Shown: piece by piece, positions 20,466 to 58,294 of the stretch
Position numbering within the stretch: position 1 is the first letter of the stretch
How the letters are laid out: every line of letters begins with the position of its first letter
Virus record (IMG/VR): IMGVR_UViG_3300007276_000054
Coordinates: 1 to 58,403 of that record
From: a virus
Lineage: Duplodnaviria; Caudoviricetes
Length of the DNA stretch: 58,403 nt
Strand: one strand, 5' to 3'
Translations under genes and position numbers: made by a program
The notes under the pieces: generated by a model
What the model saw: only the letters and a program-made list of their open reading frames with translations
What the model was told of the DNA's origin: nothing
The model's database searches: none

Positions 20466-20491
20466 GGTAAGGTATTGTCTGGCAAATATAC

Positions 20492-36085: not shown

Positions 36086-36378
36086 TACTTTGAGAATTTT
36101 TCAGCAAAACCTCCAGAGTAATCCTTAATCTCTTCAATAGAGCCGGTAACCTTTAGAGCTTTAGCCATTTGTTCTAGTCGTTGTCTTTCAACGAGCAGTT
36201 CTTTGCAGTCTATAGCGGTCTGCTTGATTGACTGTAGTTCAGCTTTTCTAGCGCTACCTCCAGCCTCGGGGTCAACCGGTCTCTTGACCTCGTCAATCAT
36301 GTTGTCTATAGCTATCTCCATAGACCTCATCAATCTCTCAGCCGCGTCTACGGTTGTAAATTTATTCTTTGACGACAT
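36085..36378 (-). CDS. Putative terminase small subunit
   Basis: Helical 97-aa protein ending GGFAEKFSK, just upstream of TerL. Confidence 0.5.
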   Translation of the reverse strand: MSSKNKFTTVDAAERLMRSMEIAIDNMIDEVKRPVDPEAGGSARKAELQSIKQTAIDCKELLVERQRLEQMAKALKVTGSIEEIKDYSGGFAEKFSK

Positions 36379-36949
36379 AAGACAAATCTTCTAGACGCAT
36401 CCTATAAACTATTGAGTCATCATCAAGCTTCATCTTGTAGTCAGAACCGACGTCAAAACCAACAACGTCTCCAATTTCAACACCCTGCTCGATTAGCTGC
36501 GGGTGAGGCATAACTACAATAGCCGTCTTGTCGTCAACCTCCTCTGTCTTAAGGTTAACGATAATACCAGAATCTGTAACCTCTTCTTCGGTTTCTTTTT
36601 CCGGTGGCTGAACAAAGACCCATCCAGAAAGCATTGACAGCTCACCTTCTGAATCTCTATAAGCAATTGCGTGAGAAGCCCTAGAGTGTTCTTGGTCATA
36701 AACCACAATGTACTTGTTGTCCCCAAGGCTAAGCGAAGGGTTTGTGGTTACGTGATGGTGAAAGAAAAGAGTGTCCCCCTCCTTTACTCCTGTATCTATT
36801 AAGAAGGGAGCGGAAACTACAGAGCCGTGACAAACGCGATGGTCAAACTCGTTGAACCTAGTGTCAAGGTAAAGTTCTTTTTCTCCCAGCTTTATTGTGT
36901 CCTCATGCTTTTCGAGCACCTCAACAACAAAGTGGCGCAATACTTTCAT
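36362..36949 (-). CDS. Tandem (two-domain) GroES-like co-chaperonin
   Basis: Two copies of the GroES pattern: G.VVSAP...VKEGDTLFFHH and TDSGIIV...VEIGDVVGF...VYRMR..D. Confidence 0.7.
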   Translation of the reverse strand: MKVLRHFVVEVLEKHEDTIKLGEKELYLDTRFNEFDHRVCHGSVVSAPFLIDTGVKEGDTLFFHHHVTTNPSLSLGDNKYIVVYDQEHSRASHAIAYRDSEGELSMLSGWVFVQPPEKETEEEVTDSGIIVNLKTEEVDDKTAIVVMPHPQLIEQGVEIGDVVGFDVGSDYKMKLDDDSIVYRMRLEDLSYVVKE

Positions 36950-39611: not shown

Positions 39612-39638
39612 CACAATATACGGAATCTTCAAACGTTA
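39612..39638 (+). promoter_or_regulatory. Repeated CAATAW-N14/15-CGTT motif, copy 1
   Basis: CACAATAT-acggaatcttcaaa-CGTTA upstream of the gene at 39671. Confidence 0.6.
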
Positions 39639-39670
39639 AGGATGTAGACAAACCTTCAAACACATTTACA

Positions 39671-40102
39671 ATGAAGAATATCATCATCATCCTAACAGCC
39701 CTTCCGGGCTTCCTCTTTGCTCAAAGCGAAATCGACATTAATATTATTGTAGCCCCACAGGGGAACCTGTTTGCCTCTACGGAAAACGACGACGCGGTAT
39801 GGTCGCACTTCTTAGAGCCGTTATACTACAGCATCGATAACCCTGCCTTCGTGCCCTTTGAGTATGGTTCAACAGTACTAGATTTCACAACAGGTCAAAA
39901 AGGAACTCATCACTTGCTCCTCACAGCTGGCAGCGATACAATCGCATACGTCATACTACACATTGACCACACAGTACTGTCAGTCCATAACTACCATGAA
40001 ATTCTAGTGAACCAAACCGAAGACTCAAACGCTACGTTTGCGCCTACACGCAACAATAAAGTGAGTAGCATCTTTGGACTTGAACCCGGACTGCAAGATT
40101 AA
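39671..40102 (+). CDS. Exported protein with Sec signal peptide
   Basis: MKNIIIILTALPGFLFA|Q: basic-hydrophobic-Ala then Gln at +1, typical of Bacteroidota signal peptides. Confidence 0.6.
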   Translation: MKNIIIILTALPGFLFAQSEIDINIIVAPQGNLFASTENDDAVWSHFLEPLYYSIDNPAFVPFEYGSTVLDFTTGQKGTHHLLLTAGSDTIAYVILHIDHTVLSVHNYHEILVNQTEDSNATFAPTRNNKVSSIFGLEPGLQD

Positions 40103-41400
40103 AAGTTTACCTTGAGGTCTTTTCGGGTGAACAGCTTACCGAATCCAGTGGGGTACTTTACAGTGCCCTTGTTCCCGAAACTCTCGGTGCGGTTGAACAA
40201 GCCTCTACTGACAGAAGTGACTCCGCGTTCACGCTCCTCTTTCGTGGGGTCAACCTTAACTCCTTTGTCAGCACGCTTGTAAATCACTCCTCCGCCATAC
40301 AGCTGACCCTTTTGTCTGGCGATTTGCTCAGCGGCTCTTCTACGTCTTTCATTAGCGAAGTCGGCGGCTGATTTTGTGGAGCTTTGGGATGTTGGAGAGA
40401 CGGCTCCTCTACGTCTTTCATTAGCTTGCTCTCTGCTCAAAGCATCCTTTGCTTCAAAAGAATCTTTAGCTCGGTCCATAAAGTACTCGTTGTCTGCTCC
40501 CTCATAACCCCTACCTCTTTCTTGAGAGCCAAACTCATCCATGAACTTTGTTACAAAATTAATCGATGCTTCGTTTTCCTCGGACAAGTCCACGCCAGCT
40601 TCTTCTGCGCGAGAAGCAAGAGCAGAGATGTCTCCCGGGGATACCATCCTATCTCCTACACCGTTGAGCACCTTAGGGAAACTAGCTCCACGGAACCCCG
40701 ACTGAGAAACTTCCGGGTTCGGGTCATAGAACCTTGCGGTTGGAACATCCATTTTATCAAAGCTGAGAGCTCCGTGAAAATCCCCAATCTTCTTGTCGGT
40801 CATATAAGAACTCATGAGATTCAGTTTCTCTTCGTCGCTCTTACCATCCAGTGCCCTAGCAAAGTTGCTATTGCCAGAAGCAATCATATTGTCAGCAGCG
40901 GCCAGAGCCTTCTCAGGATTTTCGCTAATAAATCTGTTAATCTTCGTTGCGTATTGTTGGTACTGGGAATCAAGAGAACCACTACCACTTAGGTATTTTT
41001 TTCCGAATGCAGTCTTCTTCAATCGCTCCTGCTCGTCTGGGGACATAGCATCGAGACCCCCGTCCGGGACGTTAAAGTTGTAGGCATCAATCTTCCCCTC
41101 ACCTTGGGCGGACTGCATGCCATCGTTGCTGGTGTATTCAACGCTAGCTACTTCTTTACTTCTAACGTAAGGGCTCTTCTTGCTCTTCTTTGGGTCGCCT
41201 TCTGGAACATCGTTCCCCTCATCTGCATATGCCATCTTTCCACCGAAGCGCATATACTTGTATGGCTTTTCCTCAATCTCGCCACCCATAGCATATCTCC
41301 TTACCTCTGCTCCAGAAAGAGCACGCCTTAAATCGTTGCTTCCTTTTCCATCGTTAGCAAAGAATGGAACCATCTTGCCGTTTACTTTGACCATCTTCAT
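40099..41400 (-). CDS. Hypothetical (probable virion) protein with repeated xxGG/AxxG motifs
   Basis: Start revised to MKMVK, 5 nt after TATATTTG; 433 aa. Confidence 0.65.
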   Translation of the reverse strand: MKMVKVNGKMVPFFANDGKGSNDLRRALSGAEVRRYAMGGEIEEKPYKYMRFGGKMAYADEGNDVPEGDPKKSKKSPYVRSKEVASVEYTSNDGMQSAQGEGKIDAYNFNVPDGGLDAMSPDEQERLKKTAFGKKYLSGSGSLDSQYQQYATKINRFISENPEKALAAADNMIASGNSNFARALDGKSDEEKLNLMSSYMTDKKIGDFHGALSFDKMDVPTARFYDPNPEVSQSGFRGASFPKVLNGVGDRMVSPGDISALASRAEEAGVDLSEENEASINFVTKFMDEFGSQERGRGYEGADNEYFMDRAKDSFEAKDALSREQANERRRGAVSPTSQSSTKSAADFANERRRRAAEQIARQKGQLYGGGVIYKRADKGVKVDPTKEERERGVTSVSRGLFNRTESFGNKGTVKYPTGFGKLFTRKDLKVNF

Positions 41401-41419
41401 GGTCACAAATATAATGTTA

Positions 41420-41839
41420 TTAGCGCAGGTCTGTGTCGTGCTTCTTAGAGCCCTTGATGTAGCTATTGACCCTACCCATAGCCCAAGCAGCCATCGGAGC
41501 GCCGCGTCTAGAGCCTGACGAAAGCCAAGCACCCTGACCACGTCGGTACACCTTTGCTAGGGTTCCGTAAGAAATTCCGGAACTCTTGGCTTTCTTCTGG
41601 AGAGTGGCCTTGGTTGAGGCGTTTATTGGCTTGGCCTTAACCTTCGCTCCTTTCTTTGCCTCGGTTCTTTTCTTAAACTTAAGGAAGGAAATCTTCTTTC
41701 CCTTCCTGTACTCGTCTGCCATATCCTTCTTGTTGGCAGCATCCTCCTCTACAGTCGCTTTGATTTCCTTGCCTTGTCCGGGGTCGGTGTATCTAGTAGG
41801 GAGTCCGAGTTTGTATTCCTGTTTTCTCTTACTTGCCAT
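41420..41839 (-). CDS. DUF5824-like small basic protein
   Basis: KKAKSSGISYGTL.KVYRRG.GAW..SGSR.G....WA..RVNS motif. Confidence 0.65.
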   Translation of the reverse strand: MASKRKQEYKLGLPTRYTDPGQGKEIKATVEEDAANKKDMADEYRKGKKISFLKFKKRTEAKKGAKVKAKPINASTKATLQKKAKSSGISYGTLAKVYRRGQGAWLSSGSRRGAPMAAWAMGRVNSYIKGSKKHDTDLR

Positions 41840-42017
41840 GGCTGGCGATTTTAAACGAAGCCTCCTTTACGGCACCGGGGTGTGGCTGGTAATCTCCCTT
41901 CATGAGGTAGTATCTACCCTGCTCCTCCATCCAGTGATACCCGGACGGTGGTGGGACAGATACCTTCTTGGAGGATACGCTGAGCTTTGGGCGTTCTGAT
42001 TTACGAGCCGTCTCCAT
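41829..42017 (-). CDS. Conserved small phage protein
   Basis: PPSGYHWM...LMKGDY.PH.GA...A.F motif. Confidence 0.6.
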   Translation of the reverse strand: METARKSERPKLSVSSKKVSVPPPSGYHWMEEQGRYYLMKGDYQPHPGAVKEASFKIASHGK

Positions 42018-42243
42018 CTTTCTGGCGTTTACGCTCTTTGGAAATCATCTTATTCATTGCGTCTTCACGCATTCCTGAAAGAAGATACACCATAGAGTAA
42101 TTCTTTAGTGTTGAGTCGGGTATGGATACCTCTGGAAATTCCTTTGCAAACCTAGCCTTAGTCTCTTTGAGAACAGACTCTTTTGTTACTGGCTCTTTAG
42201 GGTCACCTGCAACGGCACCTGATTTTGCTTTCTTGTACTTCAC
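42001..42243 (-). CDS. Small basic hypothetical protein
   Basis: Probable GTG start 4 nt after TATATTTG (MKYKKAKSGAVAGDPKE...). Confidence 0.55.
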   Translation of the reverse strand: MKYKKAKSGAVAGDPKEPVTKESVLKETKARFAKEFPEVSIPDSTLKNYSMVYLLSGMREDAMNKMISKERKRQKDGDGS

Positions 42244-42257
42244 ACAGCAAATATAAC

Positions 42258-42524
42258 TCACTTAGATAGACCCCAGTTGTGATTGCTGTAGCCAACATGA
42301 ACCTTATAGTCTATAGACTTAATAGTGAGCCGGAGGTTTTCCCGCTGCTTTTTTATGCGGGCAGGAGTCTTAAATGCGTAAGATATTAATCTGTCCCTAT
42401 GAATGTCAGATGACCATATCAAGTCCTTGTCGTTCCCGGCTAGGACGACACCCTTGACGGGGTACTCCTTCTTAGATTTAGCATCGTATAGAACAACGTC
42501 ACAAAGGTGGATTGGGTCTTTCAT
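42258..42524 (-). CDS. Hypothetical protein
   Basis: 88 aa; ATG lies 6 nt after the CGTTAT of the repeated motif. Confidence 0.6.
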   Translation of the reverse strand: MKDPIHLCDVVLYDAKSKKEYPVKGVVLAGNDKDLIWSSDIHRDRLISYAFKTPARIKKQRENLRLTIKSIDYKVHVGYSNHNWGLSK

Positions 42525-42530
42525 AGACCT

Positions 42531-42557
42531 ATAACGCTACCGACCTAAGATTTATTG
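42531..42557 (-). promoter_or_regulatory. Repeated CAATAW-N14/15-CGTT motif, copy 2
   Basis: Minus strand: CAATAA-atcttaggtcggtag-CGTTAT-aggtct-ATG. Confidence 0.55.
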
Positions 42558-42758
42558 CAGCTGGTTTTTAGCCAACAGAACTTTGACTTCTTGGACCTCT
42601 TTTAGCAACTGCTTTACGTCGTCCTTCATCTCAGAATTGTCTGTCTCCAAGGCAGTTACTCTCCCTTTCAATGAGCTGTAGTCTGATTGATGCTTAATCC
42701 AAATACCAATTAACGAGCCCGCTATGAGCAGTAGCTCAAATTGTGTCATTGCGTCCAT
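42552..42758 (-). CDS. Small membrane protein (one TM + coiled coil), holin/XhlA-like
   Basis: LLLIAGSLIGIW followed by heptads LKGRVTALE...VKQLL..VQEVK.LL. Confidence 0.55.
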   Translation of the reverse strand: MDAMTQFELLLIAGSLIGIWIKHQSDYSSLKGRVTALETDNSEMKDDVKQLLKEVQEVKVLLAKNQLQ

Positions 42759-42788
42759 GCTCACAAAAGTAATAACTGAAAGGCTTGT

Positions 42789-43997
42789 TTATTTCAATAC
42801 AATGACGTGACCTGATGCATTGACAATGTGTGAAGAAGCTACTTTTGAAGCCTTAAGAGAGTACACGTAACTGCCATCAGAAACGCCCGAAAGCGCCCAC
42901 TGCTCTCCCGGGTCATTGCTGTACCAAACAATCTGACCCCATCTATTATAAACGTTAAGCTCCCAAGTCCTCCAGCACTCAGGGTCTGTAACGGCATAGA
43001 ATGTATCATTAATACCGTCTCCATTAGGCGTAACGGCATTGGGAATAAATACGTCAACCTCGTCACACACCATACCTACTATGTCTTCACACAGGAGTCC
43101 AGAGTCGCAATCAATGTATTCTGTTACAACAGAGTATTCTGTTACCATTACCGTGTCAGTTAGGTATATGTACTCCGTAAGGACGACGTCTACATATGTG
43201 GTGTCGTAAACGGTTGTCTCCGTGAAGACCGTGTCCGTTAAGTATATGTAGTTGTCTATGTAGGTGGTGTCATACATGTACACCTCGATGTAATTGTCTA
43301 CTATCAGGGTGTCTATGATAGTTAGCGTTAAAGTGTCGGGCGGCATCTCCACGTACACTGTGTCGGTCTGATACACATAGACCGTATCCACCAACGTGGG
43401 GTCTGGGCAGAATGTCAATCTGTTATCACTCAGGTTGATGTCGGGGTAGGTTTGAGTTTGATTGAAGCTAGTTCCGGAGCTCCACCCTTCGGGGAATGGA
43501 AAGTCCTCGTAGTCCGCCGTTTGAGATACGTTTATCTGCCATATTACAACCTCCCAGCAGTAGCCCTCTAGCTCTGTATCTATGATGCAGTCCCAACTAA
43601 ACGGTGGATTGAGAACGAAATTAGTGAATCCGTTTGTCCATCCCGTATTGTTTGAGGACATAACATAAGACCATCCCGGATGAAACGTATTGGACGTGCA
43701 GTCCGTGTTCTCTCCATAGTCCTCTCCAGTTACCTCGTCCACGTAGTGGAGGCCAAACACAATATGAGTTACCGTCTCGTTGTTTGAGACATTGAAGCCG
43801 CCGCTTTCTTCGCACGTGTTACCATCGAATTGGGTGAACTCATTGCAGCCACAGTTCTCAGTGTTGAGCCATTGGACTTGAAAGGAGTGTAGTCCGTTAG
43901 AAACGGCGGCGCCAGTGTACCCTAGTAGTGCTATGTCGCAGGTCTGAGAGTAGGATACAAAGGGGGCTAAGAGAAGCAGAAGAAGGGAAGGTTTCAT
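42789..43997 (-). CDS. Secreted protein with signal peptide and T9SS type-B (gliding-motility-associated, CHU_C/TIGR04131-type) C-terminal domain
   Basis: MKPSLLLLLLAPFVSYS|Q; C-terminus VFIPNAVTPNGDGINDTF...LNVYNRWGQIVW...W...DGSYVYSL...GHVIVLK; DT[VLT] repeat stalk. Confidence 0.85.
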   Translation of the reverse strand: MKPSLLLLLLAPFVSYSQTCDIALLGYTGAAVSNGLHSFQVQWLNTENCGCNEFTQFDGNTCEESGGFNVSNNETVTHIVFGLHYVDEVTGEDYGENTDCTSNTFHPGWSYVMSSNNTGWTNGFTNFVLNPPFSWDCIIDTELEGYCWEVVIWQINVSQTADYEDFPFPEGWSSGTSFNQTQTYPDINLSDNRLTFCPDPTLVDTVYVYQTDTVYVEMPPDTLTLTIIDTLIVDNYIEVYMYDTTYIDNYIYLTDTVFTETTVYDTTYVDVVLTEYIYLTDTVMVTEYSVVTEYIDCDSGLLCEDIVGMVCDEVDVFIPNAVTPNGDGINDTFYAVTDPECWRTWELNVYNRWGQIVWYSNDPGEQWALSGVSDGSYVYSLKASKVASSHIVNASGHVIVLK

Positions 43998-44160
43998 GCC
44001 CCAAATCTAGCAACTTTTTGGGCACAGCTTTCCCTCATTCACTCTCTAGTTATTGTGACGTTAGGGGCTCACGATTACCCCATGTGTCTAAGCCCCGTAG
44101 GTGTCAAGCTGGTCCGCCCAAGCGGGCCAAGTGCGATACCGTTTTCGTGCCAAGGCAAAG

Positions 44161-44191
44161 CAAAGGTACACGAAAAAAACTACAAAGTCAA
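44161..44191 (-). promoter_or_regulatory. Full-consensus Bacteroidota promoter
   Basis: Minus strand TTG-N20-TACCTTTG; no ORF directly downstream. Confidence 0.6.
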
Positions 44192-44198
44192 GTACTTA

Positions 44199-44288
44199 TT
44201 ACGCTTCTTTAATGGCTGAGCGAATTGCTCGTATCACCATCAAGAACCAGATTGTTATAACAGAGTATGCTACGTATGAAGAGACCAT
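44199..44288 (-). CDS. 29-aa hydrophobic peptide
   Basis: MVSSYVAYSVITIWFLMVIRAIRSAIKEA; TACTTTTG at 44315-44322 upstream. Confidence 0.4.
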   Translation of the reverse strand: MVSSYVAYSVITIWFLMVIRAIRSAIKEA

Positions 44289-44751
44289 GCCTAATGTCAA
44301 TTTTGTTTCGGGCGCAAAAGTACATTTTGATTCGCCATTTGACTAATCAACCTTGTGAAAAAAGATGAGAGCAATACAGAGTCAGGGGATTATATATATA
44401 TAGAATCGAAATCGCATCAAAACCGAAACGATTTGTTGTAACCCACCCCCTTGGATTCGTGTCGGGTCGGCGCTAACATTCCAGCGTTTTGCCCAGCACC
44501 ATTGGAACCACAGCCCTCGTGACTGACACCACACCATGCAACGTGACGTGAACAGAGTCTCCGCACATCGATGCAGGTGCACAGGAGATAGGTACAATCA
44601 CACCCCTGCCTTTGCCGAGTTCGATTGAGTACCCATCTGTGGGTGTTAACATCTGTTGGCAATCACTGGATACTAGAACAAGATTGATATCCGTTTAACA
44701 CTCAACAACGCGACAGCTAATATATAACAGGCATCACATAACATACTGACA

Positions 44752-45243
44752 ATGAACAAGTTAAACATCACATTCAAGCGGGGCATCAACACAATCGATT
44801 TGAGCGCCGAGGGGTACGGAGTCTTCCAGCAAAAGGTCACTGACGTTTTCGTCGATGGCGAATTCAAAATGTTCATCTCCAAGGACGAGGTGCTCAAGGA
44901 CTACTCTGCCTTCGAGGACAATGACAGCGAAATGGTTGCTGGGGGCCAGACCTTAAAGGAGTGCAAAGAGAACGTTCAGCGCGTCCTGTTGAAGGAGGCT
45001 CGTGAGGACAATCAAGATGCATATGAGGACGCGGTACTCGAGCGTCGACACATGCGAAATGTCAAGGACGCTTGCACCACCCCCAGCGAACGATTCGAGG
45101 CTCAGGAAGCCATTGATATCGCACAGGCCAAACTGGATGCATTGCAGTCTGAGTTCGAGGCGATACTGGACCGCCTAAAGGACCTGATGCCTAGCCACGC
45201 ACGGAGCATGGCGCAAATCCGATTAGGTAAGTCAGCACAATAA
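44752..45243 (+). CDS. Early hypothetical protein (C-terminal coiled coil)
   Basis: First ORF of the plus-strand arm; C-ending codon bias. Confidence 0.7.
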   Translation: MNKLNITFKRGINTIDLSAEGYGVFQQKVTDVFVDGEFKMFISKDEVLKDYSAFEDNDSEMVAGGQTLKECKENVQRVLLKEAREDNQDAYEDAVLERRHMRNVKDACTTPSERFEAQEAIDIAQAKLDALQSEFEAILDRLKDLMPSHARSMAQIRLGKSAQ

Positions 45244-45263
45244 AGAAGAACCGGTGAACGTTA
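45236..45263 (+). promoter_or_regulatory. Repeated motif, copy 3
   Basis: CACAATAA-agaagaaccggtgaa-CGTTAccactata. Confidence 0.7.
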
Positions 45264-45294
45264 CCACTATATAACCCCCAACCCCCACGTCAAA

Positions 45295-45756
45295 ATGAGC
45301 ATGCTTCCAATCGTTTCCATCAAAGTCCAGAACGGCACATCCGTCGTCACGCTCTCCACCATGGGAGACACCACCCACGTCCAGACCGACACCGGAGTCT
45401 GCTTCCACGTCCGCCAGCTAGCTGAGGACAGCGTGTACTTCAAGCCCGCCCGGACCATCCTCAATCAGGCCCGTCAACTGGACCGCACCGAGCACGAGAT
45501 GAGCCAATCGTTCAAGTCTGTTCTAAGGGCCCGTCACAGCATCCAGAGCCTACTCAAGGACGGCGTAGATGCACCGAGCCATGCCGACGCGGACCGAATC
45601 GTTAACGACGCCTTCGACACCCTAGCGAAGTTGGAGGTGCTCCGAATCGAGGTCATGCGGGACCGGGACGAACTCCATCAGGACATCAAAGCGCAGAACT
45701 TCAGCAGCCGGATTGCCAACGGGGACGGCACGTCCACAGAAATTTTAGAGTACTGA
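45295..45756 (+). CDS. Early hypothetical protein
   Basis: 153-aa ORF downstream of the motif. Confidence 0.65.
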   Translation: MSMLPIVSIKVQNGTSVVTLSTMGDTTHVQTDTGVCFHVRQLAEDSVYFKPARTILNQARQLDRTEHEMSQSFKSVLRARHSIQSLLKDGVDAPSHADADRIVNDAFDTLAKLEVLRIEVMRDRDELHQDIKAQNFSSRIANGDGTSTEILEY

Positions 45757-45784
45757 CACAATAACCTGAAACCAGTACACGTTA
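45757..45784 (+). promoter_or_regulatory. Repeated motif, copy 4
   Basis: CACAATAA-cctgaaaccagtaca-CGTTAtactatt, upstream of ardC. Confidence 0.7.
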
Positions 45785-45832
45785 TACTATTGAACCGAGG
45801 GGGTAACAGGGCCCCCTCACAATTGAATCCAG

Positions 45833-46759
45833 ATGAGCAAAGAAAAGCAAGACATCTACCAGAAAGTGACCGACCGCATCGTGGCTGGTCTGAACCAAAA
45901 GGGCCTCACATGGTTCCGTCCATGGACCTCCGACGGAATGATGGCCCCCATCAATAACTCAACCGGACGGGCCTACAAGGGCATCAACGTCCTCCTGCTT
46001 TGCGCCGAGGCTGTTGAGCAAGGCTACGAGCACAACGAGTGGGTCACCTACAAGCAGGCCGTTGCCATAGGAGGCAATGTCAAGAAAGGTTCCGAGTCCA
46101 CCTTCATCGTGTTCTGGAACATCGTCTACAAGTGTGTTGAGACCGGGAAGAGCTACCGCAAGTTGGAAGACATTCCCGTGGGGAAGCGATACACAAAGCT
46201 GTTCTTCCCTCGTTCCTTCAACGTGTTCAACATCGACCAGTGCGAAGGTTTGGAGCCACGCCGTGAAAAGGTAGAGCCCACCGGAGACTTCAACCCGATT
46301 GAGCAGGCCGAGAACATCTACAAGGAGCAGTACCCTAAGGAGGTGCGCCCCACGTTGGCTCACGGCGGTTCGAGCGCCTTTTACGTCCCCAGCAAGCACC
46401 ATGTGCAAATGCCTAAGCAGGAGACATTCATCACCAGCGATGACTACTACAAGGTGCTCTTCCATGAGTTGGTCCACAGCACAGGACACGACACCATCCT
46501 CAAGCGGTTGGACAAGGTTGCTGCCTTCGGAGGCGATGCTTACAGCAAGGAAGAGTTGGTCGCTGAGATTGGTTCGCAGTTCCTCGTAGGTCTGACAGGG
46601 ATACAACCCAAGGACGATGAGACCAACAGCCAAGCCTACATCAATGGCTGGTGCAAGAAACTCACTGACCATCCAAAGATGGCTTTGAGTGCAGCGAACA
46701 AGGCCATGAAAGCCGTGGACTTCATCACAGGGGAGGGGGCAGTAGCTCCTTCCCTCTAA
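45833..46759 (+). CDS. ardC: ArdC-like antirestriction protein (ssDNA-binding N-domain + zincin metallopeptidase)
   Basis: W.RPW...N..TGRAYKGIN.LLL...W.TYKQA...GG.VKKG; FNVFNIDQ; FHELVHSTGH; YSKEELVAE. Confidence 0.9.
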   Translation: MSKEKQDIYQKVTDRIVAGLNQKGLTWFRPWTSDGMMAPINNSTGRAYKGINVLLLCAEAVEQGYEHNEWVTYKQAVAIGGNVKKGSESTFIVFWNIVYKCVETGKSYRKLEDIPVGKRYTKLFFPRSFNVFNIDQCEGLEPRREKVEPTGDFNPIEQAENIYKEQYPKEVRPTLAHGGSSAFYVPSKHHVQMPKQETFITSDDYYKVLFHELVHSTGHDTILKRLDKVAAFGGDAYSKEELVAEIGSQFLVGLTGIQPKDDETNSQAYINGWCKKLTDHPKMALSAANKAMKAVDFITGEGAVAPSL

Positions 46760-46770
46760 CCCCAGCAGCC

Positions 46771-46839
46771 ATGAGCCTATCGGAACTACAAGAGATGTAC
46801 GGACTCGAGTGGATTGACTACGTAGAGTTCTTAGATTGA
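46771..46839 (+). CDS. Possible 22-aa acidic microprotein
   Basis: MSLSELQEMYGLEWIDYVEFLD; fills the gap after ardC. Confidence 0.3.
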   Translation: MSLSELQEMYGLEWIDYVEFLD

Positions 46840-46877
46840 CCACCACGGCAATCGTTAACATTCATTCACAAATCAGG

Positions 46878-46905
46878 CACAATATGAAGAGACTTTACCC
46901 CGTTA
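46878..46905 (+). promoter_or_regulatory. Repeated motif, copy 5
   Basis: CACAATAT-gaagagactttaccc-CGTTActactata. Confidence 0.7.
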
Positions 46906-46928
46906 CTACTATACAAGACACAGAGAAA

Positions 46929-47285
46929 ATGAAAAAGATGACAGAATACAATTCAACCCCCATTGCATATGCAAGCTACCCAGCCACAGGTGTGGTAAGG
47001 ACAGACCGAAAGTTCAAGGCTCAAATCCAGTTCTACACTGGCAGCGCATGGGGCCGAGGCACATGGGACTGCACAAAGACCTTCAATGACGAAGGCCACC
47101 TTGACAACTTCATCGCTTACATCGAGCGTACAAAAGGATGGAACTTGGATGAGGTGTGGTACGTGAGCAACATCACTCCACTCAAGGATTCATGGGCCTA
47201 CCAAGGAGACCCGGTGAACCACTCCAAGCTCAGTGCATTCCACAAGCCTAATGGATGGAAGGCGCGAAGAGCAGCAGGTCTTTAA
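46929..47285 (+). CDS. Early hypothetical protein
   Basis: Start revised to the first ATG after the motif; KTFNDEGHLDNFI.Y motif. Confidence 0.65.
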   Translation: MKKMTEYNSTPIAYASYPATGVVRTDRKFKAQIQFYTGSAWGRGTWDCTKTFNDEGHLDNFIAYIERTKGWNLDEVWYVSNITPLKDSWAYQGDPVNHSKLSAFHKPNGWKARRAAGL

Positions 47286-47302
47286 CAAAACCCCCACCCA
47301 GA

Positions 47303-47470
47303 ATGATTTTTGACAATTCCCCCAATCCGTTTGTAGAGCTAGACCTTAACAAAGAAGAGTTGGTTGAAGCCTATGGTTTCTTCGCCGATGTAGACCCTGA
47401 AGCCCAGAGTCTGGTGATTAGCGCAATGGATATGAAATACTCCCTGATGGAGCTTGTTAACTTCCATTAA
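47303..47470 (+). CDS. Small acidic hypothetical protein
   Basis: MIFDNSPNPF..., 55 aa. Confidence 0.5.
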   Translation: MIFDNSPNPFVELDLNKEELVEAYGFFADVDPEAQSLVISAMDMKYSLMELVNFH

Positions 47471-47479
47471 CAACCCGAG

Positions 47480-47506
47480 CACAATAACAGCATACTTGCC
47501 GCGTTA
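47480..47506 (+). promoter_or_regulatory. Repeated motif, copy 6
   Basis: CACAATAA-cagcatacttgccg-CGTTAttaatac. Confidence 0.7.
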
Positions 47507-47542
47507 TTAATACAGAAGCAGTTCAATTAAAATCTTAGTAAA

Positions 47543-48805
47543 ATGACCGAAGTAAAATTCAACATCGACATCGAGACAGACATGATGTCCATCGCTCAAA
47601 GCATAGCAGACAACAACTGCTTGGACATCTTGAAGTCTAAGTACGCCTTCAAGAACGCCCTGTGCGTGGCTTTCTACGACAAACACAAGGACTCTATGGG
47701 CCACTGCAACTTGCGCATCTGGAACGTAAACACTGAAGAGGTGGCTGAGCTCAAGGCAGAGCTTTTGCCAGAGGGACTCACGGAACTTGCGCGGTCAGTT
47801 CGCCAGCGTATGGAGAAGCAAATGATGGAGGAGTCAGGCAGGCGATACGTTTCCATTGGAGGCTCTGAGATGAAGCAGTTCCAAGATGCCATCGATGTGG
47901 CCTTCGGAGTGCAAACATTTCTAAGCGGAAGCAAGCACGACTACAGCTACGAGTTCAACAGAGTCATTGAATGCTTAGACGACATTGCCGACCACGGCTA
48001 CGGTACACGCCTCGACCAAGGCATGATTGAAGAGCGCAACACCCGTGCCCGTCGCAAGTTCAAGCGTGGTCGCTTCCTTAAGAAGGACACCCTGAAGAGC
48101 GGCGAGAGCAGCGCGTACAACATCAACGTGGACGCAGTTGTGCAAGACCACCCAGACATCATGGATGGCATCAAGGTCGTCCCTCCTGTTCTCCGTCTTT
48201 CTAAGGAGCAAGGTGACACTGAATTCACGATGCACCGCGTCTTGCCTGATGGCACCGAGAATTACATGACGTACCCGGACAATCTGTTCGCCGCCGTCAA
48301 CCAGCTGGGCAGTATGCTCAAGCGTCGAGAGGCTGGGGCTATCAAGAAGGCCACCCAGAACGCCGCTCAGGGCCGTGACCTCAAAGAGGACAACGGATTC
48401 TACACCAACGAGGAACTCGCTATCCTGTTGCAAGGTGTTGAGCTCCCTGAGGAGCAGACCTACGCCGTCATCGACACGGGCAAGCCCAACGAGCACAGCT
48501 GTAGCCGTCTGGTGACTGACGCGGAGCGCCACGCTGTTGTAGAGGAGCTGTTCGCAGCTGGTCGCAACCCACGCATCGTCATGAGTGGTATGACCCACGC
48601 CACGGCAAAGAAGGTGGAGGCCAAGCTCCAGCGTTCCGCCTACATCGTCTCGAAGCAGAAGAGTGTTTGCGAGAGCATCACCTCTCTGCGTGAGAAACTG
48701 GAGGAGTTGGTCAAGGAGAACAAGAACTTGTCGGAGTCCAAGTCTGACAACAACGAAGCGATGATGGAGCTAATTAACAGTTCTTCACAAGTCAGCGCAC
48801 AATAA
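47543..48805 (+). CDS. Early hypothetical protein (420 aa)
   Basis: Long ORF with strong codon bias; no motif recognised. Confidence 0.75.
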   Translation: MTEVKFNIDIETDMMSIAQSIADNNCLDILKSKYAFKNALCVAFYDKHKDSMGHCNLRIWNVNTEEVAELKAELLPEGLTELARSVRQRMEKQMMEESGRRYVSIGGSEMKQFQDAIDVAFGVQTFLSGSKHDYSYEFNRVIECLDDIADHGYGTRLDQGMIEERNTRARRKFKRGRFLKKDTLKSGESSAYNINVDAVVQDHPDIMDGIKVVPPVLRLSKEQGDTEFTMHRVLPDGTENYMTYPDNLFAAVNQLGSMLKRREAGAIKKATQNAAQGRDLKEDNGFYTNEELAILLQGVELPEEQTYAVIDTGKPNEHSCSRLVTDAERHAVVEELFAAGRNPRIVMSGMTHATAKKVEAKLQRSAYIVSKQKSVCESITSLREKLEELVKENKNLSESKSDNNEAMMELINSSSQVSAQ

Positions 48806-48824
48806 CAAGGAAAGTCCTGCGTTA
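48798..48824 (+). promoter_or_regulatory. Repeated motif, copy 7
   Basis: CACAATAA-caaggaaagtcctg-CGTTAttactgta. Confidence 0.7.
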
Positions 48825-48857
48825 TTACTGTAGAAGCCACATGAAAAACACATCATC

Positions 48858-49106
48858 ATGACTGAAAAAATCATTAAGACAACAGAAGACGGATGGGACT
48901 GCGCTCCCTCCATCATGGAGGTATCCGAGCTACTCCCACAGGCTCGTGAGATGTACCACGAGATTCAGTGTTGCAAGCGAAGCATGAGCGCGAAGGACAT
49001 GCTCAGCGACCTCAAAGATTTCGTCACCGACCTCAAGCAAAGGATAGACGATGCCGTTGAAGTATTGGAAGGAGTTGAATTTGAAACCGTTGACGATGAA
49101 GACTAA
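48858..49106 (+). CDS. Hypothetical acidic protein
   Basis: 82-aa ORF after the motif. Confidence 0.6.
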   Translation: MTEKIIKTTEDGWDCAPSIMEVSELLPQAREMYHEIQCCKRSMSAKDMLSDLKDFVTDLKQRIDDAVEVLEGVEFETVDDED

Positions 49107-49326
49107 AGCATTTATGGTTCCAACCCGACAGCTTACAAAGCGTCTCTCGGACTACGAGTCAGGCAATCTCAATGTAGACCAAGTCCTTGACCTCTATTCT
49201 GTATTGATTCAGAATGGCATGGCGTGGACACTCGAAAGCAAGTACGGAAGAATGGCACGCCATCTCATTGATTCTGGTTCATTAACATCTGATGGCACAA
49301 TAACTCACGAACATCTCCCGTTCTGA
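49096..49326 (+). CDS. Conserved small phage protein
   Basis: YESG.L......L...LI..G.AW.L...YGR.A..LI..G motif; start revised to MKTKAF. Confidence 0.65.
   Translation: MKTKAFMVPTRQLTKRLSDYESGNLNVDQVLDLYSVLIQNGMAWTLESKYGRMARHLIDSGSLTSDGTITHEHLPF
49296..49323 (+). promoter_or_regulatory. Repeated motif, copy 8
   Basis: CACAATAA-ctcacgaacatctcc-CGTTCtgactaca. Confidence 0.6.
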
Positions 49327-49352
49327 CTACAGAAAACATTAAAACAATTACG

Positions 49353-49589
49353 ATGAGTGCATTTGAAAAAACCCCACGACCATTTAAGGTCGTAATGAAT
49401 AAGGCCACCAAGTCTGGTGTGTTTAAGATTCAAATCGGTGAGCTGGAGCTCAGTATCACCACCCTTGACGGTAACAACGAAGCCGTAGTCTTCTCCAAGA
49501 GTGGAGACCAGATTGCAGAGCGCAGGTTCACAGACTTCAATGAGGTTGTGTCCTTTTTCTGGAAGCTGGAGCACATCGATAGCGAGTGA
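49353..49589 (+). CDS. Hypothetical protein
   Basis: 78-aa ORF after the motif. Confidence 0.6.
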   Translation: MSAFEKTPRPFKVVMNKATKSGVFKIQIGELELSITTLDGNNEAVVFSKSGDQIAERRFTDFNEVVSFFWKLEHIDSE

Positions 49590-49593
49590 AGAC

Positions 49594-49689
49594 ATGGACA
49601 ACAAAAACTTTTCTGATACCATGTGCAATATTGGTTGGCTCGGTATCGTTATAACACTGACTCTAATCTTAATTCAATCCAAATGCTAG
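49594..49689 (+). CDS. Small single-TM protein
   Basis: MDNKNFSDTMCNIGWLGIVITLTLILIQSKC. Confidence 0.4.
   Translation: MDNKNFSDTMCNIGWLGIVITLTLILIQSKC
49626..49652 (+). promoter_or_regulatory. Repeated motif, copy 9
   Basis: tgCAATAT-tggttggctcggtat-CGTTAT, upstream of the ATG at 49683. Confidence 0.55.
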
Positions 49690-49883
49690 AAGTACAAGAG
49701 AAAAACCGGAGGACATTTCAACTCCACGACAGCGAGACAATTTGTAAGCTGTTCCTTAACGCCTGTCGCCAATTAGACGCCGGGAAATTAACACCAGAAG
49801 AGTTTACCCAGAGTTGCATGCGTATCAACGACGAAGCAGAAAACTACGGTCTGTTGGACTCTTTAACTGATTGGGAATCATGA
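49683..49883 (+). CDS. Hypothetical protein
   Basis: MLEVQEK...; start revised. Confidence 0.55.
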   Translation: MLEVQEKNRRTFQLHDSETICKLFLNACRQLDAGKLTPEEFTQSCMRINDEAENYGLLDSLTDWES

Positions 49884-50092
49884 GCATTAAAAAAAAGTTC
49901 ATAAGAAAGGTGCTCAAAATGTTGAAACTTTCCCACGGATTCCCGAACTTCGCCAAACAAGCAAACGCGGAGCGGAAAGATTTCGTAACCCTACTGTCTC
50001 AACAGAGCATGATGCTCGACGAATATGAAACTCTAGTTGCTGAGTATGACAAGCAACTCAACCCTGAAACTAAAATTCAATCCAATGAGTGA
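49880..50092 (+). CDS. Hypothetical protein
   Basis: ATGA-coupled ORF, MSIKKKF... Confidence 0.55.
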   Translation: MSIKKKFIRKVLKMLKLSHGFPNFAKQANAERKDFVTLLSQQSMMLDEYETLVAEYDKQLNPETKIQSNE

Positions 50093-50642
50093 TTACAAAT
50101 TCAAGACCACGAACATACGTGGCAAAAAATACGTCGAGGTAAGCGAGCGTATCAAATTTTTCCGTCAAGAAGAACGGTTTAAAAACTGGACAATCTCTTC
50201 TGAAATCACGATGTCAGATGACAGGAAAGAGGTTATCTGTAAGACCATCATCGCTGACACAGAACAACGAGTCATCTCTACGGGGCACGCTCACGAAGAG
50301 AGGGCTTCCAGCAACATCAACAAGACTAGCTTCGTAGAGAACTGTGAAACTTCAGCAATCGGAAGAGCTCTAGCCATGCTGGGAATTGGTATCGATGTAA
50401 GTATCGCGTCAGCAAACGAGGTGAAGGACGCCATCGCTAAACAAGACGCCAAGCCAGCAGTAAAGAAACAGACTACTGAGGAGTCTACAGAGAGTGACTA
50501 CCAGAAAGCAATAACCTTCTTGAAGAACTCGTCTGACCCCGTTGATGCGTGGAGCAAGATTAGCAAGCAGTCAAAAACCAAGTTCAGTGACGAGCAGTAT
50601 GACAGACTTCAATCGTTCGTTGCCGAAAAATCCAAGAGCTAA
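50085..50642 (+). CDS. Single-strand annealing protein (Rad52/Sak-like)
   Basis: IRGKKYVEV.ERI...TGHA.E......IN.TSFVENCETSAIGRALA.LGIG....IASA.EV; paired with an exonuclease. Confidence 0.7.
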   Translation: MSDYKFKTTNIRGKKYVEVSERIKFFRQEERFKNWTISSEITMSDDRKEVICKTIIADTEQRVISTGHAHEERASSNINKTSFVENCETSAIGRALAMLGIGIDVSIASANEVKDAIAKQDAKPAVKKQTTEESTESDYQKAITFLKNSSDPVDAWSKISKQSKTKFSDEQYDRLQSFVAEKSKS

Positions 50643-51406
50643 TGTTGAGTATTAAGCTAGCAGAAGCAGTAGGTAAGGGCCACTTATCCTATAGCTCAAT
50701 CAAGTACGCACTCCAAGACATGAAGCTTTGGGAGATGTACATGAAAGGCCAGCTCTTTAAGGAGAGCGAGGCACTAACCTTCGGAAGCATGTATGACTGC
50801 CTACTCTTTACTCCTGAGAACTTCGACAAGCAGTTCATGGTGCTCAATGATAGTGCCCAGTGTAAGGAGATTGGCGGGCGTGCCCCTCGAATGACAAACA
50901 AGTACAAAGCTTGGGTCAAGGACTATCACGAAGATGCTGAAGAGAAAGGAGTCAAGCTCATCGGAGAAGACGACTTCAAGAAGGCTAATGAGATGATTGA
51001 AAGACTCAAGGTGAGTGGCGTATTGGAAACCTACCTCATCGGTAACTACCAGCACGAGTTCAATCAGGAAATCAACGGGATACCTGTTCGAGGATTCTTG
51101 GATTGCCTGAACAAAGACTACATCAGTGACCACAAAACCACGAGGAGCTTATCGTCTTTCAGGTATGCAGTAAAAGATTACGGATACGATATCCAAGCTT
51201 ACATCTACTGCTCCGTGTTAGGCATTGACAAGTTCTACTGGGTGGCACAAGAGAAAGCATATCCTTTTGCTATTGGGGTCTATGAAGCAAGTGAAGAGAC
51301 CTTGGCTAGAGGAGAGCAGAAATTCAACAAAGCCGTAGAGAGAATCACCCGGTATTTGGACAACAACCTGAAGACCGATACGTTCTTCATCAAAGAAACA
51401 ATCTAA
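50642..51406 (+). CDS. PD-(D/E)XK exonuclease (RecE/exonuclease VIII-like)
   Basis: LSYSSIK, AL.FGS, RGFLD...ISDHKTT, YGYDIQAYIY, FYWVAQEK..P motifs. Confidence 0.8.
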   Translation: MLSIKLAEAVGKGHLSYSSIKYALQDMKLWEMYMKGQLFKESEALTFGSMYDCLLFTPENFDKQFMVLNDSAQCKEIGGRAPRMTNKYKAWVKDYHEDAEEKGVKLIGEDDFKKANEMIERLKVSGVLETYLIGNYQHEFNQEINGIPVRGFLDCLNKDYISDHKTTRSLSSFRYAVKDYGYDIQAYIYCSVLGIDKFYWVAQEKAYPFAIGVYEASEETLARGEQKFNKAVERITRYLDNNLKTDTFFIKETI

Positions 51407-51672
51407 TGACATTGCAACAACTCATCGAGAAAGCAAACTCCCACTTCGGTATCGACGTGACTATGCCAACAAACTTCAGCGGCGATGGTTTTGAACCACG
51501 TTGCCTGACCACGTACTACGCCATCACAAATATGAAGGCTCCGTACAACAAGTTGGCAGACGTCATGAAGTCCGACAGGAACGAGCTTAGACTGATGTGG
51601 TTGTATGCAGAAGGAAACCTCGGCGTAGTGAACAAACGTCGAGCGTACAAAGCGTTCACAAACACTCTTTAA
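51406..51672 (+). CDS. Small protein, possibly degenerate DnaA domain IV-like HTH
   Basis: HFGIDV...R.......LA.VM..DR pattern. Confidence 0.45.
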   Translation: MTLQQLIEKANSHFGIDVTMPTNFSGDGFEPRCLTTYYAITNMKAPYNKLADVMKSDRNELRLMWLYAEGNLGVVNKRRAYKAFTNTL

Positions 51673-51684
51673 TTTTTTCATACC

Positions 51685-51945
51685 ATGGCTGATAACAGCA
51701 ACGTGTATGCGGGATACACAGAATCCCCGCGAGTCCAACAGCGAATCTCTTTCACTACGGAAGAGCTTGATAACCTCAAGCAGTACGCTACTGAGAAAGG
51801 ACGTGTCTACTTGACCGTCGTGTCTGTCCCTCACAAGGACGATAACCGCAAGATGAAAGCCTTTTGTGAGGTCTATGACCCCAACGCTCCCAAAGAGCAA
51901 GACCGAAAGGCAAATGCAATGACTACAACTGAGGTTCCTTTCTGA
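51685..51945 (+). CDS. Putative minimal single-stranded DNA-binding protein
   Basis: Short beta-rich body with SSB-like C-terminal EVPF tail; in the recombination cluster. Confidence 0.5.
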   Translation: MADNSNVYAGYTESPRVQQRISFTTEELDNLKQYATEKGRVYLTVVSVPHKDDNRKMKAFCEVYDPNAPKEQDRKANAMTTTEVPF

Positions 51946-51967
51946 GGAATCCATAGTAGTTGTTAGT

Positions 51968-52011
51968 GAGGGGGGGAGGCATCGACCATCGTATTCTTCC
52001 CCCTTTTTCTT
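51968..52011 (+). terminator. Terminator-like hairpin before tRNA
   Basis: gaggggggga...ttcccccttttt. Confidence 0.5.
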
Positions 52012-52085
52012 GCCCTCGTAGCTCAGATGGATAGAGCAACTGCCTTCTAAGCAGTAGGCCATAGGTTCGATTCCTATCGAGGGTG
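52012..52085 (+). tRNA. tRNA-Arg (anticodon UCU)
   Basis: Acceptor GCCCTCG/CGAGGGT, D arm GCTC..GAGC, anticodon arm ACTGC-CTTCTAA-GCAGT, T arm ATAGG-TTCGATT-CCTAT; CCA not encoded. Confidence 0.95.
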
Positions 52086-52089
52086 CATT

Positions 52090-52254
52090 AAGTCACACGC
52101 CCATCTTAAACTTTACCTTGTCGGGTGAGGTGGGGTGTCCAGTCCTTTACCTTAAGTATTATAGTAGGAGTAAGGGGTCAAGTCAGGTGGTGTGTGGCGA
52201 CTTGTGTAGGCCCTGTTATGGACATCAAAGACTGACGGCTCGGAAAGACGAGCA
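52090..52254 (+). ncRNA. Candidate structured RNA downstream of tRNA
   Basis: ORF-free; several complementary segments; terminal gctcg-gaaaga-cgagc hairpin. Confidence 0.45.
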
Positions 52255-52282
52255 TCCTCGAACACAATTAAACCAATTATAA

Positions 52283-52897
52283 ATGAATATTTTTCAAGAA
52301 ACGTGGGAAGAGTACCTGCTAACTATCGGGCACGAGCACGAGAACAACAGGCAGAGACCCAACGTAGAGTGCCGGGCCGCGTTCTCAAATGCGTGCGCAC
52401 CTTTCTTTCACAACGATAACGTTTCAAAACTGTGGTCAAAAGACAGGACTACAGTATACCATTATCTTCGCAGTCACGAAACATACTACAGATACAGCAA
52501 GGATTACAGGGAGTGGTTCAACGCGGCTACACAGGTAGTCACTGACAAGATTGAGCTCGTTGACCTGAATGACTTGACTGGAGAAGCAAAGAATAAAATA
52601 GGAGCTCATGAGCAAATTGATTCAATCACAGGGACAATCAAAGTCCTCCAAAACGTCCTTAGAAAAATCGAAGCCAGAGTACGAGGCAGTAGACCATCCC
52701 AGTCACTACAAGACGGGGGGCAAGGAAGTGTACCAGATGATGCAAGACATATGGGGGACAGAATTGTACATAGGGTTCTGCGAGATGAACAGCTTCAAGT
52801 ATCGGATGAGGGCAGGAAAGAAGCCGGGTCAGTCGATGAGTCAGGACATGGAGAAGGCCAAGTGGTACGAGAACCAAGTGAAGCTACTCAAGGATGA
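52283..52897 (+). CDS. DnaA domain IV-like HTH protein
   Basis: R.R..VE.R.AF......VS.LW.KDRTTVYHY...HE motif; 3' half overlaps the DUF3310 gene. Confidence 0.55.
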   Translation: MNIFQETWEEYLLTIGHEHENNRQRPNVECRAAFSNACAPFFHNDNVSKLWSKDRTTVYHYLRSHETYYRYSKDYREWFNAATQVVTDKIELVDLNDLTGEAKNKIGAHEQIDSITGTIKVLQNVLRKIEARVRGSRPSQSLQDGGQGSVPDDARHMGDRIVHRVLRDEQLQVSDEGRKEAGSVDESGHGEGQVVREPSEATQG

Positions 52898-52985
52898 AAG
52901 AGAGAAAGGTAACAATCTACCCGACAATCTATCGCACACAAGAGGCAGTAGTCACGACGTTGGATACTGTTCTAACGAGGATTAA
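52608..52985 (+). CDS. DUF3310 (SaV-like) protein
   Basis: VDHPSHY...E......GFC..N..KY..RAGKK.....D..KA.WY. Confidence 0.8.
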   Translation: MSKLIQSQGQSKSSKTSLEKSKPEYEAVDHPSHYKTGGKEVYQMMQDIWGTELYIGFCEMNSFKYRMRAGKKPGQSMSQDMEKAKWYENQVKLLKDEREKGNNLPDNLSHTRGSSHDVGYCSNED

Positions 52986-54690: not shown

Positions 54691-54704
54691 ATGTAAATTG
54701 TAAA

Positions 54705-55187
54705 ATGTCACAGCGATACAAAAAGAATCTGACTCGTCCACATAAGTCGAAGAAGAGAAACCTGAGTAGAGGTCGTGTTACCATGAAGTCTACACTTGAA
54801 ACGTATTGCTATGACCAGCTGAAGGAGGCAAAGCTCAAGTTCTATTATGAGCCTGAAACGTTTGAGCTGGTGAGCTCATTTAGATACGGCGGAGTATACT
54901 ACAAGTCGTCAAAGGGGAAGGATGTCATGACAAACGCTACAGAAAGGGTAGTGTTGCCAATTAAATACACCCCTGACTTCGTTAGTCACGAGCACAAGTT
55001 CATCATAGAAACTAAGGGCTATGTCCCTTCTCAGCACACGTTTCCGCTACGTTGGAAGCTATTCTTACATTACCTAAGAGACAATGATATGGACGATTAC
55101 ATGTTGTTCATTCCTAAAAATAAAAAGCAAGTCGATGAAACGATTCGCGTAATCAAACAACACCTAAATGGACAAGGAGAAACTTAG
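54705..55187 (+). CDS. Endonuclease (T7 endonuclease I-like, possible resolvase)
   Basis: KS.LE...YEPE...KYTPDF...IIETKG motif. Confidence 0.75.
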   Translation: MSQRYKKNLTRPHKSKKRNLSRGRVTMKSTLETYCYDQLKEAKLKFYYEPETFELVSSFRYGGVYYKSSKGKDVMTNATERVVLPIKYTPDFVSHEHKFIIETKGYVPSQHTFPLRWKLFLHYLRDNDMDDYMLFIPKNKKQVDETIRVIKQHLNGQGET

Positions 55188-58173: not shown

Positions 58174-58260
58174 GGGCTATGAGCCATTGTTGGGTGAGCC
58201 AACTTTACTATCTTGGTACTGTTACGCCGGACTAGTGTCGGAGTTTCGTTACCTTAATTA

Positions 58261-58294
58261 GACCCCTGCTCTTCGGAGTGGGGGTTTTTATTTT
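58261..58294. terminator. Terminator at the convergence of the two genome arms
   Basis: acccctgctc-TTCG-gagtgggggt followed by a T run. Confidence 0.8.

Follow-up and report, generated by a model that had tools for sequence, protein, structure and literature searches.

The DNA analyzed here, hereafter the window, is the entire 58,403-bp contig of the IMG/VR record IMGVR_UViG_3300007276_000054, a podovirus-like phage genome which PHROG and Pfam scans resolve into two arms. The minus arm, running from about 44,000 down to 180, encodes the terminase, portal, capsid and tail genes, a protein of 1746 amino acids (aa) with a crassvirus muzzle C-terminal domain at its end, and an open reading frame (ORF) of 3301 aa. 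The plus arm (44,752-58,173) contains an ArdC/zincin anti-restriction-like protein, an exonuclease, a primase-helicase, a resolvase-like nuclease and a ribonucleotide reductase, together with numerous small proteins without assignment. Our subject is a bipartite motif, CAATAW-N14/15-CGTT, found before early genes, which an earlier note, made from the letters of this DNA, had put forward as a second class of promoter. The terminase is most similar to that of the uncultured phage MW202828.1 (47% identity), followed by Flavobacterium elemo phages (42%) and then by Cellulophaga phages, crAss001 and other crAss-like phages. A Bacteroidetes host is pointed to by the CHU_C type-IX sorting domain (Pfam) borne by ORF 42789-43997, by the TATATTTG boxes of TAnnTTTG type that precede late genes, and by relatives infecting Flavobacterium and Cellulophaga.

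A Bipartite Motif before Early Genes

A pattern scan returned nine matches to CAATAW-N14/15-CGTT, exactly those listed in the earlier note (table 1). The note had named enrichment over shuffled sequence as a check, and 100 dinucleotide-preserving shuffles of the window yielded a mean of 0.42 matches and a maximum of 3. The description of the copies likewise held: the spacer is 14 nt in three of them and 15 nt in six, all nine are oriented with the next gene, whose ATG lies 8-49 nt from the end of CGTT, and the TACTAT-like hexamer reported downstream is recovered as a TAYAG/TATAT box. A tenth, weaker copy with one mismatch stands further along the plus arm, and its counterparts in three related loci (L004, L005 and L007) fit the pattern fully. 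Copy 1 is placed before a lone plus-strand gene (39671-40102, 143 aa) and is kept before the homologous gene in two related genomes, G001 and G002; by eye, the N-terminus of this 143-aa protein is signal-peptide-like. The gene behind copy 2, of 88 aa and no known family, is the first of the minus arm and is conserved in the four related genomes G001-G004. It may act as a regulator early in infection, governing for instance a switch to the late promoters.

Table 1. Motif copies and other features located in the window
Feature	Position	Strand	Core match	Remarks
Copy 1, ACAATAT-N14-CGTT	39613..39646	+	39614-39637	predicted +1 = A 39646
Copy 2, GCAATAA-N15-CGTT	42524..42558	-	42533-42557	before gene 42258-42524; predicted +1 = 42524
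Copy 3	45237..45271	+	45238-45262	before gene 45295-45756, 153 aa
Copy 4	45758..45792	+	45759-45783	before gene 45833-46759, ArdC-N and zincin MPTase-PolyVal, anti-restriction-like
Copy 5	46879..46913	+	46880-46904	before gene 46930-47285
Copy 6	47481..47514	+	47482-47505	before gene 47543-48805, 420 aa, no family
Copy 7	48799..48832	+	48800-48823	before gene 48858-49106
Copy 8	49297..49331	+	49298-49322	before gene 49353-49589
Copy 9, GCAATAT	49625..49659	+	49626-49650	before ATG at 49684
Copy 10, weaker, ACAACAA-N14-CGTT	51360..51393	+		motif 51360-51384, one mismatch; before gene 51406-51672
TATATTTG, sigma-A -7 box	20483..20490	-		17 nt before gene 19728-20465
Same-type boxes	10578, 24360, 29125, 37001, 38318, 41406, 42248, 42764, 44002			late arm
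Giant ORF, 3301 aa	649..10554	-		virion arm; HExxH near residue 860, DUF7178 at residues 1463-1524
Intrinsic-terminator-like hairpin, strong, with T run	58260..58287	+		closes the plus (early/replication) arm

Conservation among Related Phages

A search with the primase-helicase gave 72 related viral loci, and 75 loci in all were fetched for the motif scan. All loci with 56-94% primase identity (L004-L014) contain the motif, at 2-12 copies each; 64 of the 75 loci have no match or a single one (61 none), no more than chance would give, including that of MW202828 (L001, one match). In the four related genomes of about 60 kb, G001-G004, we counted 10, 11, 15 and 11 copies, where block shuffles gave 0.34-0.54; nearly all of the copies lie on the strand of the early arm. 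G005, a fifth genome from this family, has zero copies, and no repeated motif was seen by eye in the early arm of elemoA. Many of the genes behind the copies differ between related phages; with flanking genes so often unshared, the motif is retained independently of its neighbors. The arrangement at copy 2 recurs elsewhere: in L009/G003 a copy lies 8 nt before a 90-aa ORF, as in the window, and in both G003 and G004 a copy stands just before the tblastn match to the 88-aa gene, at coordinates that fit the 8-nt spacing.

Other repeats were observed in the early arms of motif-poor relatives. In MW202828.1 (40000-60850, locus L002) the repeat is a perfect 16-bp palindrome, GTGTCGTTAACGACAC, containing CGTTAACG; at least 14 copies are present (its 9-mers recur 14-15 times), 25-35 nt before early genes, for example at about 4540, 4810, 5600, 5895, 7660, 8930 and 9875 of the locus. 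The palindrome has a CGTTA core like the window motif, without ACAAT at -33. G005-like phages, on the other hand, share a conserved 9-nt word, AAACTTCAA, in the leader, some 12 nt ahead of early ATGs (L060 ~930-4430, L020 ~630-4190, L050 ~810-3440). Upstream of this word lie long inverted repeats or hairpins, tRNA-like 3' ends, or stretches in which hammerhead-like words (CTGATGAG...CGAAAC...GTC) were noted by eye; Rfam returned neither hammerhead nor tRNA in those leader stretches.

Anatomy of the Signal and Predicted Start Site

The consensus of 73 distinct copies reads (G)(C)A-CAATA-W, a spacer, CGTT-A-T-A and then T-A-T-A-G-A-A, so that the full signal may be written ACAATAW-N14/15-CGTTAT-N2/3-CTATAGA; the length of the spacer is fixed and its sequence free. 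The ninth base after CGTT is A in 55 of the 73 copies, preceded by T or C in 60, and is the strongest conserved position downstream. When 66 distinct copies were examined for a following gene, 62 had an ATG-initiated ORF within 150 nt. The gap from CGTT to ATG is never below 8 nt; it is 15-37 nt in 42 copies and exactly 8 nt in four, namely window copy 2, one in L009/G003 and two in L014. The simplest reading of this 8-nt minimum, together with the most conserved downstream base, is that transcription would start on the conserved A, 9 nt after CGTT, and the mRNAs of the 8-nt cases are then predicted to be leaderless. On this layout CGTT would occupy -12 to -9 and ACAAT -33 to -29 with the 14-nt spacer, one base further with the 15-nt spacer. 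The start so predicted, the eighth nucleotide after CGTTA, agrees with the earlier note, which had expected it some 6-8 nt after CGTTA.

Two other readings of the motif were considered and rejected. A hairpin promoter is not indicated by DNA folding of the 73 copies, whose mean energy (-2.10 kcal/mol, against -1.73 in shuffles) reveals folding no stronger than that of shuffled sequence and whose structures have no stem in common. A sigma-70-like arrangement, TTAACA-N17-CACAAT, emerged from a consensus scan; its upstream T-rich element carries at most 0.46 bits per position and the host type is Bacteroidetes.

Sigma-A-Type Boxes of the Late Arm

In Flavobacterium psychrophilum the -7 box of the primary sigma factor of Bacteroidetes, sigma-A, is given as TAnnTTTG at -12 to -5 (Guerin et al. 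2021, PMC9723704). TAnnTTTG shows no overall enrichment in the window (38 found, 37 expected). Nevertheless, 11 of the 38, five of them TATATTTG, are correctly oriented and precede the start of a minus-strand gene by 2-51 nt, whereas none of the 38 precedes a plus-strand gene. For none of the 38 does a TTTG lie 17-23 nt upstream. The early copies, for their part, have CGTTAT rather than TAnnTTTG at the -7 position and thus do not qualify as sigma-A promoters. The distinction drawn by the earlier note between the motif and the TAnnTTTG signals of the structural arm is therefore confirmed.

Match to Flavobacterial ECF Sigma Promoters

A counterpart of the phage signal is found among the 5' ends mapped in F. 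psychrophilum, where Guerin et al. (2021, PMC9723704) describe a motif named SM6, attributed to extracytoplasmic function (ECF) sigma factors, as the promoter of genes for type IX secretion and of a single operon encoding an ECF sigma and its anti-sigma. The statements that follow refer to the SM6 rows of supplementary file 3 of that study, 42 in number, which comprise 23 5' ends and 19 repeated as "putative TSSs" (transcription start sites). Ten of the 19 start sites read as a pentamer, N16, CGTT, N8 and the mapped 5' end. Their pentamers are ACAAT (3), ATAAT (2), GCAAT, AAAAT, ACAAC and ATACT (2), so that seven end in AAT, and the ten sites include those of gldN, porU, rmlB, the leaderless yceA and a secretion-linked outer-membrane protein. 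The gldN and rmlB promoters, both ACAATAA-N14-CGTT, are exact matches to the pattern of the earlier note. Four further sites form a separate GTAAC-N16-CGT[AC] subclass, which includes the ECF sigma gene's own promoter, and five lack a CGT box at -12. The offset of the mapped start in SM6 equals that of the phage copies, and the latter had been derived from the leaderless copies before the table was inspected. Moreover, the window copies have the ECF layout, with ACAAT followed by 16 nt (three copies) or 17 nt (six) and CGTT. In Porphyromonas gingivalis the ECF sigma SigP is described as binding the promoter regions of type-IX-secretion genes (PMC4800418), and by analogy the flavobacterial CGTT subclass may belong to a SigP orthologue.

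What the earlier note had proposed as a second, ECF-like promoter class thus stands in part: there is an orientation-specific class in the early arm with ECF-like geometry, and sigma-A boxes in the late arm, while its reader may be a host sigma or an injected phage factor. Its further suggestion, that infection is tied to a stress state of the host, finds no support, since the gldN promoter, of the same subclass, is highly expressed in every condition tabulated in the F. psychrophilum file; the cognate sigma may hence be routinely active.

Search for a Phage-Encoded Reader

Pfam scans of all ORFs of the window found no sigma factor or RNA polymerase domain. Six-frame scans of the five motif-bearing genomes gave no Sigma70_r2, Sigma70_r4_2 or Rpb1, each of which was matched in control genomes by the same scans; a scan for T7-type polymerase (PF00940) likewise had no match in the five, nor in the control genomes. 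These results agree with the earlier note, which had recognized no sigma or polymerase in this DNA.

The giant ORF of the virion arm is the only candidate carrier of a specificity factor delivered by the phage. From its sequence and models it looks like a polyvalent ejection protein. Some of its 72 homologues, giant proteins of 2100-3900 aa that share a conserved C-terminal region of about 1160 residues, carry PF18760 or PF18838 (ART-PolyVal or LPD23 domains), and language-model features of residues 1-1000 resemble the polyvalent domains LPD22, LPD23 and ART-PolyVal. An AlphaFold model of residues 1850-3010 (predicted local distance difference test, pLDDT, 73) is all-helical and matches only helical bundles, apart from a weak match (Z 5.8) to a phage ejectosome protein, and that of residues 1000-1860 (pLDDT 69) has no match above Z 5.7. 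Each of the four motif-bearing genomes G001-G004 encodes a conserved counterpart of the giant protein, at least 1446 residues of which align at 39-89% identity; in the motif-less G005 and in MW202828 it is unrecognizable or reduced to a 163-residue piece at 28% identity.

We found no support for the idea that this protein is a virion polymerase. The catalytic motif D[FYWLIVM]DxD is absent from it and from every other long ORF of the virion arm; its only six-frame matches are DVDVD in a 392-aa ORF (22917-24095) and DLDSD in a 70-aa frame, and the giant ORF of MW202828 lacks the motif as well. BLASTP detected no similarity to gp66, the virion polymerase of phage phi14:2, and PDB sequences gave no match to the giant protein alone or to its 22-sequence profile. 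Foldseek and VIA-align found no polymerase or sigma match for the models of residues 1000-3010, the row for the virion RNA polymerase domain of phage N4 (9pnq; E 0.32, template-modeling score 0.09) being noise.

Candidate Readers of the Motif

The motif very probably represents a class of promoters. As for its reader, we favor host RNA polymerase with a host ECF sigma, a proposal which, drawn from sequence and by analogy, we place at a probability of about one half. The core enzyme of the host would carry an ECF-type sigma of the kind that serves the type-IX-secretion and gliding genes of Flavobacterium, whose promoters have the form "xxAAT-N16-CGTT". The holoenzyme would bind ACAAT(AW) at about -33 to -27 and CGTTAT at -12 to -7 and start on the conserved A 9 nt after CGTT, yielding leaders of about 12-29 nt or leaderless mRNAs, while the late and structural genes of the other strand would use the sigma-A-type TAnnTTTG boxes. 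Several points weigh against this proposal. We infer from sequence not only the promoter role and the start site but also transcription from the motif, the reading sigma and a flavobacterial host that possesses it, and F. psychrophilum serves here as a stand-in for that host. ECF sigmas are frequently kept inactive. Uniformity among the phage copies far exceeds that of the tabulated SM6 set, as would be expected if a dedicated phage factor read them, and the finding of the giant protein with the motif, and its unrecognizability without it, would fit a co-evolving phage-borne reader too. Related phages with the same genome plan have quite different early-gene repeats, and it is above all because of this change of the early-arm signal from clade to clade that a phage-borne reader is still to be considered. 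Finally, the models of the giant protein span residues 1000-3010 only.

A phage-borne reader could take two forms. The specificity of the promoters may come from a protein delivered with the virion, whether the 3301-aa protein through one of its domains or some other protein that is ejected, acting as an unrecognized polymerase or sigma-like adaptor, as in phi14:2 or N4. Early genes require a reader that is present at entry, the giant ORF occupies the position of the phi14:2 virion polymerase genes g065-g067, and its distribution among the motif-bearing and motif-less genomes, the high uniformity of the motif and the distinct early-arm repeats owned by related phages would all suit such a factor. 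Nonetheless, we regard this as unlikely, given the missing catalytic motif, the empty sequence and domain searches, the models without polymerase or sigma resemblance, the polyvalent-like character of residues 1-1000 and a known host promoter class that already explains the geometry of the motif. Less likely still, the copies would be "middle" promoters, read by an unrecognizable phage sigma-like factor or activator made from a first transcript, for instance from 43998-44751 or gene 44752-45243. The non-coding head of the plus arm and that gene do lack the motif, and many of the small early proteins belong to no family; yet gene 44752-45243 is missing from the closest relative, G001, which retains the motif, no sigma domain was detected, and no plus-strand gene is preceded by a sigma-A-type box that could supply the first transcript. 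That the copies are not promoters at all, but serve as operators for some regulator, as sites of RNA processing or as structured signals in DNA or RNA, appears very improbable. The perfect palindrome of MW202828 is typical of a dimeric binding site, and a few copies in relatives fall in hairpin loops. The motif itself, however, is asymmetric, strictly co-oriented with genes and never closer than 8 nt to an ATG, its folding does not exceed that of shuffles, and a spacer of fixed length and free sequence is what promoters have.

Returning to the host ECF sigma, we can only tentatively extend the proposal to a whole clade of widespread marine crAss-related podophages that, without a polymerase or sigma of their own, would run their entire early program from idealized versions of host SigP-like ECF promoters such as those of gldN and porU. 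If this were true, infection would fire only in cells in which the secretion and gliding regulon is on. That regulon builds surface structures that commonly serve flavobacterial phages as receptors.

Other Features of the Window

Between the arms, 754 nt (43998-44751) contain no ORF of at least 100 aa and no family match. Most of this region is 83% identical to G001, the closest relative, from which the neighboring gene 44752-45243 is absent, and it resembles the highly transcribed non-coding regions described for phi14:2 (bioRxiv 10.1101/2020.03.07.982082). The replication arm also carries a tRNA-Arg with anticodon TCT (52012-52086, plus strand). In the minus arm, 36362-36949 encodes a 195-aa protein whose C-terminal half is GroES-like (Cpn10; PHROG "co-chaperonin GroES"); GroEL is also encoded by the relatives MW202828 and elemoA. 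DNA near-identical to 44700-52000 was found in contigs of 20 metagenome runs from 12 studies, labeled marine, seawater, viral and freshwater, so that the phage is widespread; no RNA run was found to contain it. A search of genome contigs with the CHU_C protein had one match, a phage-like contig (L099, WLWP01000006.1, 61,607 bp) in a metagenome-assembled genome labeled Pseudomonadales. A 38%-identical relative of the CHU_C-domain protein is encoded on this contig, and its size is like that of this phage family; probably it comes from a phage and was binned with a genome to which it is unrelated. GldN had no match in the virus record itself, in the control genomes or in the Pseudomonadales-labeled assembly.

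Comparison with Known Systems

The giant virion polymerase of phage N4 reads hairpin promoters. The phage of the window resembles N4 in its giant virion protein, about 3300 aa long, and in having early promoters of a special class; unlike those of N4, its copies have no conserved hairpin, and no T7-like polymerase was found in the fold searches with the models of residues 1000-3010 or in the PF00940 scan. Podoviruses of the phiEco32/SU10 type reportedly encode an ECF-like sigma and use ECF-type promoters for a temporal class of genes. ECF-type recognition of a temporal class would thus be common to both, but the window phage has no detectable sigma gene and its class is that of the early genes. 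A full-text literature search, judged by titles and the beginnings of abstracts, found no phage that uses a host ECF sigma for its early genes.

Phage phi14:2 injects its own polymerase, and its early promoters yielded no motif (bioRxiv 10.1101/2020.03.07.982082). With phi14:2, as described there, our phage shares a related virion module (terminase, portal and muzzle domain), a giant gene that ends the structural arm, early genes on a signal that is not of host type, and late genes on promoters of the host primary-sigma type. It differs in having neither the DFDxD polymerase motif nor, by BLASTP, similarity to gp66. To judge from that source, phi14:2 is the one model among crAss-related phages of Bacteroidetes for which the start of transcription is known. 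The motif clade adds phages without a recognizable polymerase or sigma and with a sharply defined early promoter, which has predicted starts and whose signal matches an experimentally mapped host ECF class. It thus becomes testable whether a lytic phage can rest its early program on an alternative sigma of the host, whether the success of infection tracks the activity of a regulon (type IX secretion and gliding in Flavobacterium), and what switches to sigma-A-type late promoters that have no TTTG at -33. The copies are, in addition, candidates for strong and orthogonal promoters with which to equip genetic tools for Bacteroidetes.

Classical ECF promoters (AAC at -35, CGT at -10) have the same two blocks, 16-17 nt spacer and CGT at -12; an example is GTAAC-N16-CGTC, from which the ECF sigma gene THC0290_1774 of F. 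psychrophilum is transcribed (PMC9723704). The -35 block of the phage, unlike theirs, ends in AAT rather than AAC, and the autoregulated GTAAC/CGT[AC] subclass tabulated in F. psychrophilum is distinct from the CGTT subclass of SM6, which the phage copies resemble. Compared with the tabulated SM6 sites, the phage copies vary far less, carry a conserved G/C-A ahead of CAAT and a CTATAGA box at the predicted start, and allow a 17-nt spacer (six of the nine in the window); their use by an ECF sigma is putative. Yet both groups, that of SM6 including gldN, porU, rmlB, yceA and Rfp11, have a -35 block ending in AAT at -33 to -29, a 16-nt spacer and CGTT at -12 to -9, often as CGTTAT, followed by a purine start 9 nt after CGTT, mapped in SM6 and predicted in the phage, and by leaders that are short or absent.

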